DNA of 64,000 bases from Nitrososphaerales archaeon (GTDB lineage: Archaea; Thermoproteota; Nitrososphaeria; Nitrososphaerales; Gagatemarchaeaceae). Position numbers and translations under genes: made by a program. The first letter of the stretch is position 1. Every line of letters begins with the position of its first letter. The notes below the pieces were generated by a model that saw only the letters and a program-made list of their open reading frames with translations, searched no databases and had not been told where the DNA came from. Location of the stretch: the NCBI GenBank assembly GCA_032906765.1, contig JAJTZB010000003.1:77072-141071 (forward strand), given 5' to 3'. Shown here piece by piece: positions 33,798 through 39,132 of the stretch.

Positions 33798-34767
33798 TGA
33801 TGCGCTCTAAAAGGGAGACCGAGATGTTGCCGCCGCTAACAACGAGCACCGTCTTCTCGCCCTTCTCGTCCTTGAGCGGACCTCTGAGCGCCGCTAGAGG
33901 CGACGCCCCTGCCGGCTCGGCGAGGACGCGTGCTCTTGTCAGCATGTCGTAGACCGCATTTTCTATCTGCCTGTCGTCGACTAGGCCAATCCTGTTGACG
34001 TACCTCGTCACAGCCTCGAACGTCAGCTCTCCAGGGATTGCAGCCTGCATGCCGTCTGCTATCGTCTTCTTCGGCTTCACACGCACCATCCTCCCCTCCT
34101 CCACTGATTCGTACATCGACGGGATTGCTCTTGTCTCTGCTCCGTAGACGCGGACCGTTCGCAGGGACTGCTTCAGCGCTATTGCCACACCAGATATCAG
34201 ACCACCGCCGCCGATCGCGACGACTGCAGAGTCCATGTCCGGCGCCTGCCTGGCCATCTCAAGGCCGCATGTCCCTTGGCCGGCTATGACATCCCTGTCG
34301 TTGAATGCGTGGACGAAGGTGAGGTTGCGGCGCCGCGCAGTCCTGACTGCGTTTTCGTACGCCTCGTCGTAGCCCCCTCCGTATCTCACAATCTCCGCTT
34401 CCTGCTCCTCAATCGCTGTTACCTTCTGAGGGTTCGCGTTCTCGGGGACGCAGATCACTGCCCGGATTCCGAACTTGCGGCTGGCGTACGCGATCGCCAG
34501 GCCGTGGTTCCCTGAAGAGGCAGTGATCACACCCCTCTTGAGCGCCGAGTCACTGAGCAGCAGGAGCTTGTTCAGAGCGCCGCGAATCTTGAAGACTCGG
34601 ATTGGCTGGAAGACCTCCAGCTTGAGGAGCACCTCCCGCCCGAGAAAGGAGGAGAGGCCCGGCGAGCGCTCCAGCGGTGTCGGCGGGATGTGCTCTCTTA
34701 TCCTGGCCTCCGCTTGCTCGATCTCGCGCAGTCCAGGGAGGGCCGTTGTGGCCATCAGCCGAACCAT
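33769..34767 (-). CDS. Threonine/serine dehydratase family PLP enzyme
   Basis: 332 aa with the PLP lysine motif (FQPIRVFKIRGA), SSGNHG and a GGGGL loop. Confidence 0.85.
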   Translation of the reverse strand: MVRLMATTALPGLREIEQAEARIREHIPPTPLERSPGLSSFLGREVLLKLEVFQPIRVFKIRGALNKLLLLSDSALKRGVITASSGNHGLAIAYASRKFGIRAVICVPENANPQKVTAIEEQEAEIVRYGGGYDEAYENAVRTARRRNLTFVHAFNDRDVIAGQGTCGLEMARQAPDMDSAVVAIGGGGLISGVAIALKQSLRTVRVYGAETRAIPSMYESVEEGRMVRVKPKKTIADGMQAAIPGELTFEAVTRYVNRIGLVDDRQIENAVYDMLTRARVLAEPAGASPLAALRGPLKDEKGEKTVLVVSGGNISVSLLERIISRRLRGSS

Positions 34768-35780
34768 TTCTCCAGTGTTTCGGACTGCGTTGACCTGGCG
34801 GCCTGAATCCTCGCGAGTGCAGCCTGAACGCGTTCAGGAGAGAAGGAGTGCTCCCCGACGAGGAAGGAGACTATCCTCTCGCCGTCAGGAGGCTTCCACT
34901 CGGGCATTACGCCCTTGGTAGCCGGAGGGTTGAGGTAGAGCTCCCTTATCGCATTGTAGTTTATCCCGGCCAGCTCGTCCTTCAGCTCCACGATCGACTC
35001 CAGCCTTCCGTACCTCTTCAGGTACTTCAGGGCCCTCACCGGGCCGACACCAGGGAATCCTCCTGGGTTGAAGTCAGTCCCGAGGAGAATCGCGAAGTCC
35101 ACGAGCTGCTCTCTCGTGAGCCCGGTCTCCGAGAGGACTGACGAAAGCGTTATCCTCTCGGGTTGGACGTTGATCACTATTCCTTTGCCGGGGAGCCTGC
35201 GCTTTCCCGAGATTGTCACATTCCTGACGAGGACTGGAGACCCGAAGATGAGTGAGTCGTGGTCCTGTGACGCAACGGCATCGACGGTCCCCTCCCCGGC
35301 CATGACCGACGCCTGGGCCTCTCCCTCGGAAGGGGCGTCGACCCAAGGTATCCCCATCGCATCGAGGAGTTGCTTCGCGTCCGCCACCATGTCCTTCCTC
35401 AGGACAGTTGACGCCTCCGCGAACTTCCTGGCCTGGGCCATGTCGCCCGCCTGTAGCGCTTTCAGGTACATGTCCTTGGCCTCGCGCCTCTGCGCAGAAC
35501 GCCTTTCGATCTCCTCGGCCTTCATTTCTGGGGGCTTGCCGTCGAAGACGTACACGAGCTTGATCCCCAGCTCGAGCAGGTTGATGTTCCTGTAGAAGAG
35601 GCCGCTGATGTGGGAGGTAACTCGACCCTTCGAGTCCTTGAGGTGCTCCCCGTTCGCTCCCCTGATTATGGCGAGGAATTGGTAGAGCGTGTTGTACGCG
35701 TCGACCGCGAGCTTCCAGCGGGCAATGTCCGCCAGCTCGATCTTCTCTCTCGGTATCGAGTCGCCCAGGTCAACGCCCAT
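34755..35780 (-). CDS. fen: Flap endonuclease 1
   Basis: 341 aa. It has an N-terminal MGVDLGD motif, XPG-N/I domains (VYVFDGKPP, SEGEAQ, SQDHDSLIFG) and an H3TH (GTDFNPGG). Confidence 0.93.
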   Translation of the reverse strand: MGVDLGDSIPREKIELADIARWKLAVDAYNTLYQFLAIIRGANGEHLKDSKGRVTSHISGLFYRNINLLELGIKLVYVFDGKPPEMKAEEIERRSAQRREAKDMYLKALQAGDMAQARKFAEASTVLRKDMVADAKQLLDAMGIPWVDAPSEGEAQASVMAGEGTVDAVASQDHDSLIFGSPVLVRNVTISGKRRLPGKGIVINVQPERITLSSVLSETGLTREQLVDFAILLGTDFNPGGFPGVGPVRALKYLKRYGRLESIVELKDELAGINYNAIRELYLNPPATKGVMPEWKPPDGERIVSFLVGEHSFSPERVQAALARIQAARSTQSETLEKWFG

Positions 35781-35904
35781 GCCAGACCCGCGCTGGCCGC
35801 GGCGGCATTTATTATTTGGCCAATGGGCAGCCCAGCACGTCTAGGGGTGAGATGAAAGCACGATTGGTGGTTAAGTATGCAAAGAATGCTCTTGCATCTA
35901 GAAT

Positions 35905-37098
35905 ATGCTCTCTGCCTTCAAGTACAGGCTCTACCCCAAGCCCGAGCAGGAGATGCGGCTCAATCGCTCCCTGCTCTTGCTCTGCAACCTCTATAACGAC
36001 TTGAAGGCCCAAGAGATGAGAAGATACAGGGAAGAGAACAAATCGACATCACTGGCGGCATTCAGGAGGCTTGCGCTCGACGCTCGTAAGCAGAGTGAGG
36101 AGCTTCGAGCGGTCCACAGCCAGGTCGTCCAGAACGTAGGCGATAGAATCCATCGGTCGTTCAGGAACTTCTTCGAGGGGAGGGCAAGGTTCCCGATGTG
36201 GAAGCAGCCCCACAGGTACAGCTCACTGACATACCCGCAATCGGGGTTCAAGCTCGATTCCCAACTTGGCCTTTGCCTATCAGGGATCGGTTACGTCAGA
36301 ATCTTCGTCCACCGTCCGCTGCTGGGCAGGGTGAAGCGCCTCACAATCAAGCGAGAAGCAGACGGCTGGTACGCCACTTTCATCGCAGAGCGCGAGGCAC
36401 CAGCTAAGAGACCCATCGCCGGGATACCCGCCAGCAGGGTCAGAGGTGCAGACCTGGGTCTCGATAAGTTCGTGGTGATGGACGACGCAACCTCGACCGA
36501 GTATCCAGAATTCTTGCGACGGTCAGAGGACAAGATCAAGCGCCTGCAGCACCACTTCTCTAGGAAGCACAAGGGCTCGAAGCGTCGCCTCGAGCTCGGG
36601 CGGAGGCTCGCTAGGCTCCACCTGCACGTGCGAAGACAGCGCGAGGACTTCCAGAACAAGCTCGTCCACAAGATTTTCGCAGAGAATGATGCCCTCATAC
36701 TGGAGAAGCTGAATGTTTCCGGCATGCTCCGCAACTACTCGCTAGCCAAATCCATCACGGACGCGTCGTGGGGAAGGTTCGCCCGCAGGGCTATCTTCAA
36801 GGCCGAATCGATGGGCAAGCACACAATCTTCGTCGACCCCTGGGGCACGACCCAGTTCTGTCACAACTGCCTCCAATGGGTTCCGAAGGATCTGGCCGAG
36901 AGGGAGCACAAGTGCCCCAACTGTGGCGAAACCACACCAAGAGACCTCAACTCCGCTCTTCTCATCAAAAGGCTCGGCACCCCCAGAAGCCCGGCCCCGG
37001 ACAGGGGCTCGTCACTCGCAGAGCAAGGGTCTCTGCCCTCCCTCAGGGAATGGGCAAGCTCGAGCAGTGAAGCGGGAAGCTCACGACTTCAGTCGTGA
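35905..37098 (+). CDS. tnpB: TnpB (OrfB_IS605) RNA-guided nuclease family protein
   Basis: 397 aa. It has the N-terminal FKYRLYP motif, RuvC-I D (GADLGLDKF), RuvC-II E (LILEKLN), a Zn finger (CHNC...CPNC) and RuvC-III D (PRDLNSA). The low-complexity C-terminal tail reads into the terminal hairpin. Confidence 0.9.
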   Translation: MLSAFKYRLYPKPEQEMRLNRSLLLLCNLYNDLKAQEMRRYREENKSTSLAAFRRLALDARKQSEELRAVHSQVVQNVGDRIHRSFRNFFEGRARFPMWKQPHRYSSLTYPQSGFKLDSQLGLCLSGIGYVRIFVHRPLLGRVKRLTIKREADGWYATFIAEREAPAKRPIAGIPASRVRGADLGLDKFVVMDDATSTEYPEFLRRSEDKIKRLQHHFSRKHKGSKRRLELGRRLARLHLHVRRQREDFQNKLVHKIFAENDALILEKLNVSGMLRNYSLAKSITDASWGRFARRAIFKAESMGKHTIFVDPWGTTQFCHNCLQWVPKDLAEREHKCPNCGETTPRDLNSALLIKRLGTPRSPAPDRGSSLAEQGSLPSLREWASSSSEAGSSRLQS

Positions 37099-37099
37099 G
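37080..37099 (+). other. Perfect 8-bp stem-loop CTCACGAC-TTCA-GTCGTGAG overlapping the tnpB stop codon
   Basis: The inverted repeat is read directly from the sequence. Its position at the tnpB 3' end fits the right-end / omega-RNA scaffold region of IS605-family elements. Confidence 0.6.
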
Positions 37100-37105
37100 A
37101 GGATG

Positions 37106-37354
37106 TCACTCGTTGATGCGGGGGATGCGCTGCTCCTCTTCCGGCTTCTCTAGGACCTCGAGCCTGCGCTTGTCCTTCCCGACCCAACGGACGCTGATCA
37201 GACCAAGAATCTCGAGCTGCATCAGCACCTTGTTAAGCTCGTCCGGCGAGCACTTCGTTCCGTTCTTGTTCAGCGCCTCCAGTAGGTCACCGTCAGTGGA
37301 GTTCTTCTTCTCCTTCAGCCACTCGAACGCTGCGTATCTGAGAGGGTACTTCAT
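37106..37354 (-). CDS. Small winged-helix-like protein
   Basis: 82 aa. DLLEALNKNGTKCSPDELNKVLMQLEILGLISVRWVGKDKRR looks like a wHTH. It converges on tnpB, and the two stops are 8 nt apart. Confidence 0.4.
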   Translation of the reverse strand: MKYPLRYAAFEWLKEKKNSTDGDLLEALNKNGTKCSPDELNKVLMQLEILGLISVRWVGKDKRRLEVLEKPEEEQRIPRINE

Positions 37355-37424
37355 AGAATCACTTCGGCAGAGGCGGCAGGTACCTCTGTTCCTCGTCTGG
37401 TATAAAAGCTCTGTCGGCGCTCGT

Positions 37425-37721
37425 TCACTGAGGAGGTAGCTTGCTGGACATCCTGCTGACGCCCATGAACTCGCACTGCCCGACGAGGGGAGCGGTGGAG
37501 ACGGCCGCCTCGACCTTGTCGATTATTCCCTCTCCCTCTGGTGCAACTATGTCGAGGATTAGGGCCGACAGGCCGAACGCTATGGGCTCGATCTTCTGGG
37601 CCCTGACCTGTGTCTCGGCCGGAAGTACGCTGGTCACTAAATCAACTATCTTCTTGTGCTCCGTAGTAGTGTCCTGCGGGAGGACCTTGAGCCTGATGAC
37701 GTATGAGCCCATCGTGCCCAC
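37425..37721 (-). CDS. Elongation factor 1-beta (aEF-1beta)
   Basis: 98 aa. IRLKVLPQD......IV..V...LP.......QKIEPIAFGL.AL.L.IV.P....G..D.VE.A matches the aEF-1beta pattern. It lies next to its usual Zn-ribbon partner. Confidence 0.8.
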   Translation of the reverse strand: MGTMGSYVIRLKVLPQDTTTEHKKIVDLVTSVLPAETQVRAQKIEPIAFGLSALILDIVAPEGEGIIDKVEAAVSTAPLVGQCEFMGVSRMSSKLPPQ

Positions 37722-37955
37722 CTAAGGACCTTCGAACCCGCAGCTGACGCACTTGTATCTGCGCGAGAACTTCCTGCACTTCTCGCATCTCCATATCAGC
37801 ACCTCGTGACAGTTGGGGCAGTAGAACTTGGACGCCCTCTCTCCCGGCTTGATTGGCCTGTTGCACGAGCTGCAGAGTGGGAGCGATATGGTGCTCTGGG
37901 ACATGTTCGGATGAAAACCCCCGTGGAGGCTGGCTGATATGCTTTGCTCCGTCAC
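37722..37955 (-). CDS. Zn-ribbon protein (COG2888-like) usually found with aEF-1beta
   Basis: 77 aa with four CxxC pairs (CSSC, CPNC, CEKC, CVSC). Confidence 0.7.
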   Translation of the reverse strand: MTEQSISASLHGGFHPNMSQSTISLPLCSSCNRPIKPGERASKFYCPNCHEVLIWRCEKCRKFSRRYKCVSCGFEGP

Positions 37956-37962
37956 GAGCCGG

Positions 37963-39132
37963 TTACGAGCCCGTCAGGAGCGACCTGGCTCCCGCAGAGG
38001 CGACAACCCTAGCTACCCTGAGAAGGCCCCCCACCCCAACGGCTCCGAGAAGAGCAGTTGCGTGAAAGTCGAAGTCGGACTGTGAGAGCCTGGAGAGGAG
38101 CTTCGGAGTGGCCAAGGCCGTCACGAGCGCGTCGAGGTCCTTGTTGGAAAGATTCTCGAAGACCCTCCTCAGCCTGAGCATACTCCTCATCTCCTTGAGG
38201 AAGCGCGATTCCCAATCTGGTTGGTAGTTGTCCAGTAAGGAGGGGTCGTTGAGCTGGAGCGCATCGTTGACCCACCTCGCACCGGTCACCGCCCCCCCAA
38301 TCGACGTCATTATTCCTCCTGCGGTGGTCGGCTTCACCTGGCCGGCAGACTCGCCCACCAAGACCCTCCTACCCTGAACAAAGGGGCCTACAGGTCCGCC
38401 GACGTAGATGGGAGCGGCCACCCTCCTGAGCAGCTTGTGAGGCCTGGACAGTAGGAAGCCGTCTAAGGCTTTGAATGCGTTGACTCCCCAGCCTGCAGCC
38501 CCGACCTTGGCCCTGCCTGATCCGTAGGGTATCACCCATGCAAAGAACCCCGGGTACTTCGCCGCGTCGACGAATACCTCAACAGTCCTCTCTCTCAGCC
38601 AGTCGGCCTCGATCTCGTACTTCGCTGCTGGAATGATTCCCCGCCTGGGGGCAGAGGCTGGCCCCGTCGCGTCAACGAAATACTTCGCCCGGAGGGTCTC
38701 TCTTCCCACCTTGACGGCTACGCCATCGTCCGTCTCGCGGTGTCCTGAGACCCTGGCGCCAGTCCTCACCACAGCGCCCCACGACTCTGCCTTCTCCTTG
38801 ACGTGCTTGTCGTAGGCGCTCCTGTCGAGCACCACAACGTTCAGGGCAGTAGCGTTGACAGCAAGCTCGTTACCGGCTGGTGAGTGAATGACGCCCGAGG
38901 CTATCTCGTTCTGGATGACGTGCTTCTCCGGGGCGAACCCGAACCTTCGCAACCCGCGGAGACTGACGAGCCCGTCGCACTTCTCCGGTTCGCCTATCTC
39001 CTCGTGCTCCTCCGCCACAAGGACCGTGAGCCCCCTCTTCGCTGCTTCTGCCGCAAAGGCGAGGCCGGCGATGCTTCCTCCTGCCACGATGGCGTCGTAT
39101 TCCCTGCTCAAGAAACGGGGACCTTTGCGCAA
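37963..39132 (-). CDS. Geranylgeranyl reductase family FAD-dependent oxidoreductase
   Basis: 389 aa. It has an N-terminal FAD fold (YDAIVAGGSIAGLAFA..A.RG..VLV.E) and a GESAGQVKPTTAGGI motif typical of GGR. Confidence 0.8.
   Translation of the reverse strand: MRKGPRFLSREYDAIVAGGSIAGLAFAAEAAKRGLTVLVAEEHEEIGEPEKCDGLVSLRGLRRFGFAPEKHVIQNEIASGVIHSPAGNELAVNATALNVVVLDRSAYDKHVKEKAESWGAVVRTGARVSGHRETDDGVAVKVGRETLRAKYFVDATGPASAPRRGIIPAAKYEIEADWLRERTVEVFVDAAKYPGFFAWVIPYGSGRAKVGAAGWGVNAFKALDGFLLSRPHKLLRRVAAPIYVGGPVGPFVQGRRVLVGESAGQVKPTTAGGIMTSIGGAVTGARWVNDALQLNDPSLLDNYQPDWESRFLKEMRSMLRLRRVFENLSNKDLDALVTALATPKLLSRLSQSDFDFHATALLGAVGVGGLLRVARVVASAGARSLLTGS

Follow-up and report, generated by a model that had tools for sequence, protein, structure and literature searches.

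Three described systems stand closest to the locus reported here: ISDra2 of Deinococcus radiodurans, whose TnpB is represented by structures 8bf8, 8exa and 8h1j; the IS608 transposon; and the IS1341-type elements of Halobacterium salinarum (PMC4615843; PMC12558985). Our locus belongs to a Nitrososphaerales archaeon (Gagatemarchaeaceae; assembly GCA_032906765.1) and lies within a 64,000-nt stretch of contig JAJTZB010000003.1 (positions 77,072 to 141,071, forward strand), which we call the window and whose numbering is used throughout. Judging from sequence comparisons, window 35813-37109 very probably represents a single-copy, non-autonomous IS200/IS605 element of the tnpB-only (IS1341) type, carrying TnpB together with its cognate omega-RNA.

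With ISDra2, the window TnpB has in common the order of domains, the DED triad and the zinc finger, and ISDra2 TnpB is also its best fold match in the PDB. In both systems the RNA scaffold overlaps the 3′ end of tnpB, terminates at the element's right end (RE) and sets a pseudoknot beside the guide, an arrangement that is predicted in our case. In both, too, the target-adjacent motif (TAM) is the target motif of the transposon, and the protein has a disordered C-terminal tail. However, the two proteins are only ~25-27% identical, the TAM is TTGAT in ISDra2 and TTAT here, and ISDra2 has an adjacent tnpA (IS605 type), whereas the window element is tnpB-only and resides in a mesophilic soil archaeon. 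Like IS608, the element sits 3′ of a fixed tetranucleotide (TTAC in IS608, TTAT here), with no duplication and an exactly reconstructable empty site. IS608 has subterminal hairpins at both ends; in the window copy the right-end one is perfect and conserved, and the one at the left end (LE), present in relatives, is degraded. It differs from IS608 in its right-end cleavage motif (TCAA in IS608, GTCAC here), and from the "peel and paste" scheme of IS608 and IS200/IS605 elements in that neither the element nor its genome contains tnpA. The Halobacterium elements are likewise tnpB-only and archaeal, with a sense-overlapping 3′ RNA, but their host is of another phylum, the Rfam models of their sense-overlapping transcripts (sotRNAs) and of HgcC are unmatched here, and a single motif is in common. 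This motif, a UUCA loop closed by eight base pairs, has been described in haloarchaeal IS1341 sotRNAs as the "RE-like tetraloop" (Gomes-Filho et al. 2015; PMC4615843).

An earlier note on this DNA had looked to other copies in the genome for LE, RE and the TAM. The source genome (1.77 Mb in 13 contigs, 95.6% complete) contains no second copy, DNA-level sharing within it being limited to the last ~38 nt of RE, and the ends and TTAT were therefore obtained from empty sites and orthologous elements. In sister species, the genes for FEN1 and for a winged helix-turn-helix (wHTH) protein abut at the empty site CATTTAT/TCGTTGATG (slashes mark junctions), which puts the element at 35813-37109, a length of 1297 bp, inserted 3′ of TTTAT. 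Sister genome G002 reads GGCGCCATTTAT/TCGTTGATGCGCGGG at this site, and the source genome reads GGCGGCATTTAT/TATTTGGCC...GGATGTCAC/TCGTTGATGCGGGGG. Comparison of the empty CATTTAT/TCGTTG with the filled CATTTAT/(element)GTCAC/TCGTTG reveals no target-site duplication, in keeping with insertion of the IS200/IS605 type. Five or more sister genomes supplied empty sites; among the sister species checked, the plain empty site is present in four (G002, G005, G015 and G020), and other sequence is found there in G001 and G003. At the right boundary, at least 12 related elements, which come from different genomes and have different flanks, cease to be homologous exactly at GTCAC, position 37109. At the left boundary, TTAT directly precedes LE in 16 of 16 independent relatives (7 genomic and 9 metagenomic), with T, G or C as the base before it, so the homologous ends that the note had sought are present on both sides. 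TTAT is therefore taken as the target motif, and the logic of the IS200/IS605 family predicts that it is the TAM as well. The principal parts of the locus are as follows.

35808-35812, plus strand: target motif TTTAT (core TTAT) and predicted TAM, immediately 5′ of the element, from empty sites and 16 left junctions.
35813-35904, plus strand: LE, 92 bp, from alignment with eight relatives.
35905-37098, plus strand: tnpB, 397 aa, with RuvC residues D183, E267 and D347, zinc-finger residues C319, C322, C337 and C340, and a disordered tail (362-397).
36974-37109, plus strand: predicted omega-RNA scaffold, with a firm core at 36992-37109 and a 5′ limit that is uncertain within ~36960-36990.
37110-37129, plus strand: predicted guide, TCGTTGATGCGGGGGATGCG, the flank immediately 3′ of RE, antisense to the last wHTH codons.

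That the 397-aa open reading frame (ORF) bears the hallmarks of TnpB, as the note had proposed, is confirmed. Its motifs include GADLG (D183), LILEKL (E267), CHNC (319-322), CPNC (337-340) and PRDLNS (D347). Pfam domains PF12323 (HTH_OrfB_IS605), PF01385 (OrfB_IS605) and PF07282 (Cas12f1-like TNB) are found with 30.2, 68.4 and 56.6 bits, each above its cut-off, and the NCBIfam model NF040570 (guided_TnpB) scores 226.9 bits against a cut-off of 100 over residues 5-356. In a HMMER alignment to ISDra2 TnpB (8bf8/8exa/8h1j; E 8.5e-40, residues 4-357), D183, E267 and D347 fall, by residue count, on D191, E278 and D361 of ISDra2. No member of an alignment of 15 sequences, down to 34% identity, departs from this triad or from the four zinc-finger cysteines; besides the window copy, the alignment contains nine orthologues that are 58-85% identical and, from the source genome itself, five paralogues that are 34-39% identical. 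Thus, the catalytic substitutions that a proper alignment might have exposed are not seen. An AlphaFold2 model has a mean predicted local distance difference test score (pLDDT) of 82.5, and its best Foldseek match in the PDB is 8h1j_A, the ISDra2 ternary complex (E 1.1e-25; TM-score 0.73 when normalized by query length, 0.80 when normalized by target length); ISFba1 TnpB, Fanzor2 and Cas12f come next. The ratio of nonsynonymous to synonymous substitution rates (dN/dS) is 0.10-0.20 in pairwise comparisons; the core of the protein is under purifying selection.

The C-terminal tail behaves differently from the core. Residues 362-397 have a pLDDT of ~30 and are predicted to be disordered. Synonymous divergence is 0.34-0.78 in codons 1-352 versus 0.13-0.40 in the tail (codons 353-397), where nonsynonymous and synonymous differences are about equally frequent (pN ~ pS). 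The constraint on the tail is therefore on nucleotides, at the level of RNA, and not on protein. This agrees with the idea, already in the note, that the tail reads through structured DNA, and residues 362-397 are best regarded as a translation of the DNA that would encode the omega-RNA.

Comparative analysis of this region points to an RNA with three prominent parts.

36992-37011, plus strand: pseudoknot hairpin, stem GCCCC/GGGGC and loop GGACA (36999-37003), with two covarying stem pairs.
37080-37099, plus strand: right-end hairpin, 8-bp stem and UUCA tetraloop, with the tnpB TGA stop (37096-37098) inside it.
37101-37109, plus strand: terminal motif GGAUGUCAC (transposon-encoded motif), with RE and scaffold both ending at C37109.

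In an alignment of 15 sequences, every codon position is conserved through the last ~150 nt; coding sequence upstream varies at third positions. Conservation at the nucleotide level extends from ~36960-36985 to 37109, which gives a scaffold of ~125-150 nt. The note had placed the omega-RNA in the last 150-200 nt up to the right end of the element; its location and right end hold, and its length is revised downward. The consensus structure has 40 pairs, with 95.5% of alignment cells paired, versus 36-45% when partners are slid by 1-3 columns, and its covariation score is 0.247 versus 0.117 +/- 0.011 in shuffled alignments. A covariance model built here (R1) recovers 77 metagenomic relatives. 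By contrast, folding of 36950-37109 as a single sequence yields a structure no more stable than shuffles (z -1.17). Single-sequence thermodynamics is therefore uninformative here, and the evidence for structure at the 3′ end, anticipated by the note, is comparative. Taken together, structure and covariation predict an omega-RNA that lies at the 3′ end of tnpB, is terminated by RE and has a guide-adjacent pseudoknot, as is characteristic of TnpB systems.

The hairpin near the right end (CTCACGAC-TTCA-GTCGTGAG, 37080-37099) is the best-supported helix, with compensatory changes at 6 of its 8 pairs. It is the perfect hairpin singled out in the note, overlapping the stop codon and followed by GGATGTCAC at 37101-37109. 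Perfect hairpins with 8 bp and a 4-nt loop are not rare in themselves (3 in the window versus ~0.85 in shuffles); this one is taken to be real because it is conserved and covaries in relatives. Several of its pairs are G-U pairs, on the plus strand only, and these are sensible only in an RNA of the plus strand. At the foot of the hairpin, a change unique to the window copy is compensated, C-G having become U-A. The same change creates the TGA stop of tnpB, whereas the ORFs of relatives read on into the flank.

The pseudoknot hairpin is supported by two stem pairs that covary (CG, GC, AU, UA), and its loop, GGACR, is almost invariant. This loop can pair with a YGUC strand (37104-37107) that stops two bases short of the element's end (GGACA with UGUC in the window copy). 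The variable pair of the pseudoknot is A-U in 8, G-C in 6 and G-U in 1 of the 15 sequences; in metagenomic copies the two bases are A and U (23 cases), G and C (34), G and U (2) or A and C (1). In addition, two paralogue families of the same genome have the loop GGAAC together with the terminus GUUCAC, a double compensation (GAAC with GUUC). All scaffold helices and the pseudoknot are intact in the window copy.

Just 5′ of the firm core lies the stretch UUGGCAUCC (36974-36982, codons ..RLGI..), whose synonymous positions are invariant in 13 of 15 relatives and which is complementary to the terminal GGAUGUCA. RNAalifold joins the two in a long-range closing stem, which we rejected: it never covaries, and the variable U/C of the terminal motif faces an invariant A. 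The helix and the loop-terminus pseudoknot are mutually exclusive, and the pseudoknot is preferred because it explains the U/C variation at the terminus. The UUGGCAUCC stretch may form an alternative conformer, serve as a 5′ processing site or do something else.

The left end has a decayed subterminal hairpin, CCCAGCACG (35831-35839) with GGGGTGAG (35844-35851). It also has a TATA-like box, TTAAGTAT (35871-35878), whose conservation and spacing, ~26 nt ahead of the tnpB ATG, suggest that it is the tnpB promoter. As the note had observed, no tnpA is adjacent, which fits an IS1341-type arrangement: the neighbors are the FEN1 and wHTH genes, and no ORF with a Y1 domain lies inside or adjoining the element. 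A Y1 TnpA (PF01797) is also not matched anywhere in the 95.6%-complete source genome, so none is available there in trans, nor in 5 searched genomes of the genus; it is matched in 8 of 97 genomes of the family. Given that the genome yielded no Y1 TnpA and that the LE hairpin is degraded, the element has probably lost its mobility. We consider it probably nuclease-competent nonetheless: the module looks intact, and its activity we infer by analogy with characterized TnpBs.

Several observations weigh against this reading. A scan of 35000-38000 with all of Rfam at E <=10 returned four chance-level matches and no omega-RNA family; the sotRNA models RF02656 and RF02657 and the HgcC model RF00062 had no match in that scan, so membership in these families is not indicated. 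Of the covariance-model searches suggested by the note, then, those with Rfam models came back empty, and the model built in this analysis gave matches. The window copy alone has two T-to-C changes (36974 and 36979) in the otherwise invariant UUGGCAUCC, and if the RNAalifold helix is real, it contains two C.A mismatches in this copy. The LE stem CCCAC..GTGGG folds in relatives, and in the window copy two of its five outer pairs are broken. Finally, there is a single copy, no known relative of which is more than 85% identical, and recent activity is not evident from it. One may view the element as a stranded, decaying relic, with an ORF that is still open, a TnpB-omega-RNA pair that no longer works, and deletion still to come. 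The lack of TnpA in the source genome and in 5 genomes of the genus, the damaged LE hairpin, the two unique substitutions and the single copy are all as expected for such a fossil. We nevertheless regard it as unlikely, since the 397-codon frame is unbroken, with the seven catalytic and zinc residues all in place, the scaffold helices and pseudoknot are preserved, and the one unique change in the RE stem is compensated. Moreover, dN/dS on the terminal branch of the window copy is ~0.25, the same as for its sister copy, although this value averages in time before the insertion.

It is also conceivable that the host has domesticated TnpB, and keeps the nuclease-RNA pair to regulate or protect, for example, the FEN1/wHTH locus. 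Domestication would explain why RE, RNA and protein are conserved beside a decaying LE; the predicted guide runs antisense to the wHTH gene at its 3′ end, and the insertion replaced sequence upstream of the probable FEN1 TATA box. Yet the locus is not a conserved one, as the same site is without the insertion in sisters G002, G005, G015, G020, G001 and G003, and relatives of the element lie in unrelated flanks, as ordinary mobile copies do. Known TnpB-derived regulators of the TldR type are nuclease-dead. They combine loss of RuvC catalytic residues with a fixed host context, in contrast to the intact triad and non-conserved locus found here, and all told domestication seems very unlikely. Less credible still is the notion that the terminal hairpin matters as DNA only, with no functional RNA involved. 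IS200/IS605 right ends carry DNA hairpins recognized by TnpA. Such right-end hairpins are also discussed in PMC4615843, and Watson-Crick covariation would be expected of a DNA hairpin as well. But several stems pair through G-U or U-G, which would be tolerated only in plus-strand RNA; the ~120 nt upstream of the hairpin are structured and conserved too; and a covarying long-range pseudoknot to the last bases is a hallmark of omega-RNA, not of a TnpA site. The two roles are in any case not mutually exclusive, and a hairpin acting solely as DNA strikes us as extremely improbable. We thus favor an immobile element that retains TnpB and its cognate omega-RNA. More speculatively, and to our minds with rather poor odds, the TnpB-omega-RNA module may be kept by selection in a TnpA-less lineage while the transposition end decays. 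The RNA-guided nuclease would then survive alone, outside any working transposon, either because it homes or guards against its own loss or because its domestication by the host has begun.

How such an element would work can be proposed by analogy with ISDra2 and other characterized TnpBs. The TATA-like box in LE would drive a near-leaderless tnpB mRNA, and the 3′ 125-150 nt of the transcript, extended by readthrough into flanking sequence, would yield the omega-RNA on processing; PMC12558985 credits Nety et al. (2023) with a report of self-processing by TnpB. With its pseudoknot hairpin, a nested core of several helices, the UUCA hairpin of RE and the pseudoknot between loop and UGUC, the scaffold would bind TnpB and present ~16-20 nt of the flank as guide. 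The complex would then cut DNA in which TTAT is followed by a match to the guide. By analogy with ISDra2, the flank at 37110-37129, beginning TCGTTGATGCGGGGGA, would act as the guide. TTTAT joined to this flank recreates the sequence of the empty site, and G002 differs from it by one mismatch, which falls on guide position 12; elsewhere in the source genome the guide has no match with <=1 mismatch. The target to be cut would be the element-free allele, and the element would therefore be retained or homed. This homing or retention logic is the standard one for IS200/IS605 TnpBs, and would extend to the present element by analogy. An exact-match metagenome search for the empty-site junction of the source organism itself gave no match, and therefore no evidence for a polymorphic insertion.

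No concept is changed by this example, as its gene, RNA, hairpin and homing logic each have described counterparts in other IS200/IS605 elements. What it adds is a thaumarchaeal TnpB with exact ends, a TTAT TAM (16/16) and a predicted omega-RNA of 125-150 nt whose structure and pseudoknot are supported by covariation. The relatives recovered by R1 come from soil and sediment metagenomes and go unrecognized by Rfam, so the model may be of use in annotating Nitrososphaerales metagenome-assembled genomes (MAGs), where the 3′ tail and orphan RNA pieces would be misread otherwise. The element also supplies another compact candidate nuclease (~360-aa core), from a soil and groundwater archaeal lineage. 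Mildly unusual is the pairing of a decaying transposition end with a conserved nuclease-RNA module in a genome that lacks TnpA.

The neighbors of the element are archaeal: FEN1 (34755-35780, minus strand), an 82-aa wHTH gene (37106-37354, minus strand) and aEF-1beta. Its closest orthologues are carried by members of the same family whose genomes bear the titles of Nitrososphaerales or Thaumarchaeota MAGs and come from soil, peat and groundwater. The insertion splits the final wHTH codon after its second base. TTTAT (35808-35812), read on the minus strand, includes the ancestral TAA stop of this gene, and TCA at 37106-37108 now provides a TGA stop for the convergent reading frame. The change from GAA-TAA to GAG-TGA thus leaves the wHTH protein as it was, with a stop codon that comes from the GTCAC end of the element. 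Its position, ~28-32 nt ahead of the FEN1 ATG, suggests that TTTAT on the minus strand also serves FEN1 as a probable TATA box. The insertion spared this probable TATA box, and the sequence just upstream, where a B recognition element (BRE) would be expected, was replaced by the left end of the element (window 35781-35830), which may affect FEN1 transcription.

The two sister genomes with other sequence at TTTAT/TCGTTG deserve mention in their own right. G001 has a stretch of ~800 bp (L026:700-1497) with a gene for a 171-aa helix-turn-helix (HTH) protein on the minus strand, and G003 has a 47-bp filler (L021:1083-1129); both inserts begin CGCTTTGGTGG directly after TTTAT. Both may be ancestral, or they may be scars that other insertions left at a hot spot. 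The G001 insert was considered as another insertion sequence and set aside, since it encodes the HTH protein instead and has no match to the RNA model. By eye, this protein looks Tfx-like.

Elsewhere, the source genome is rich in related material. It contains 13 TnpB-like matches, the window copy included, of which at least 6 cover nearly the whole query, and at least 4 omega-RNA families. The 12 others are at most 39% identical to the window TnpB, and several families have their last 12 nt in common (GGAGGATGTCAC) even though their proteins are only 35-39% identical to it. On contig C4 at ~82990-83070 (minus strand, outside the window), four closely spaced (G)ATGTCACCCT-like words occur within ~80 nt, with no associated hairpin. 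Also outside the window, at C4:1474-1724 (plus strand; L019:1288-1538), is a protein-less mini-element. It passes from an LE-like segment (GCGAGAAAGCCCGC..GTGGGATGAATCGC) and TATA-like box straight into a complete omega-RNA scaffold, with no tnpB between the parts. The scaffold is of the C1/C6 paralogue family and ends in GGAGGATGTCAC. This mini-element looks like a stand-alone omega-RNA in the manner of palindrome-associated transposable elements (PATEs). Two solo pieces of ~55 nt, at C2:6823-6877 (plus strand; L016:1485-1539) and C2:240426-240480 (minus strand), consist only of an RE hairpin and the terminal GGAGGATGTCAC, and upstream of them is neither scaffold nor tnpB. They could represent what is left of right ends, or hairpin elements of minimal size. 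Such orphan RE and omega-RNA pieces recall the intergenic RE-like tetraloops and PATEs of the H. salinarum work.

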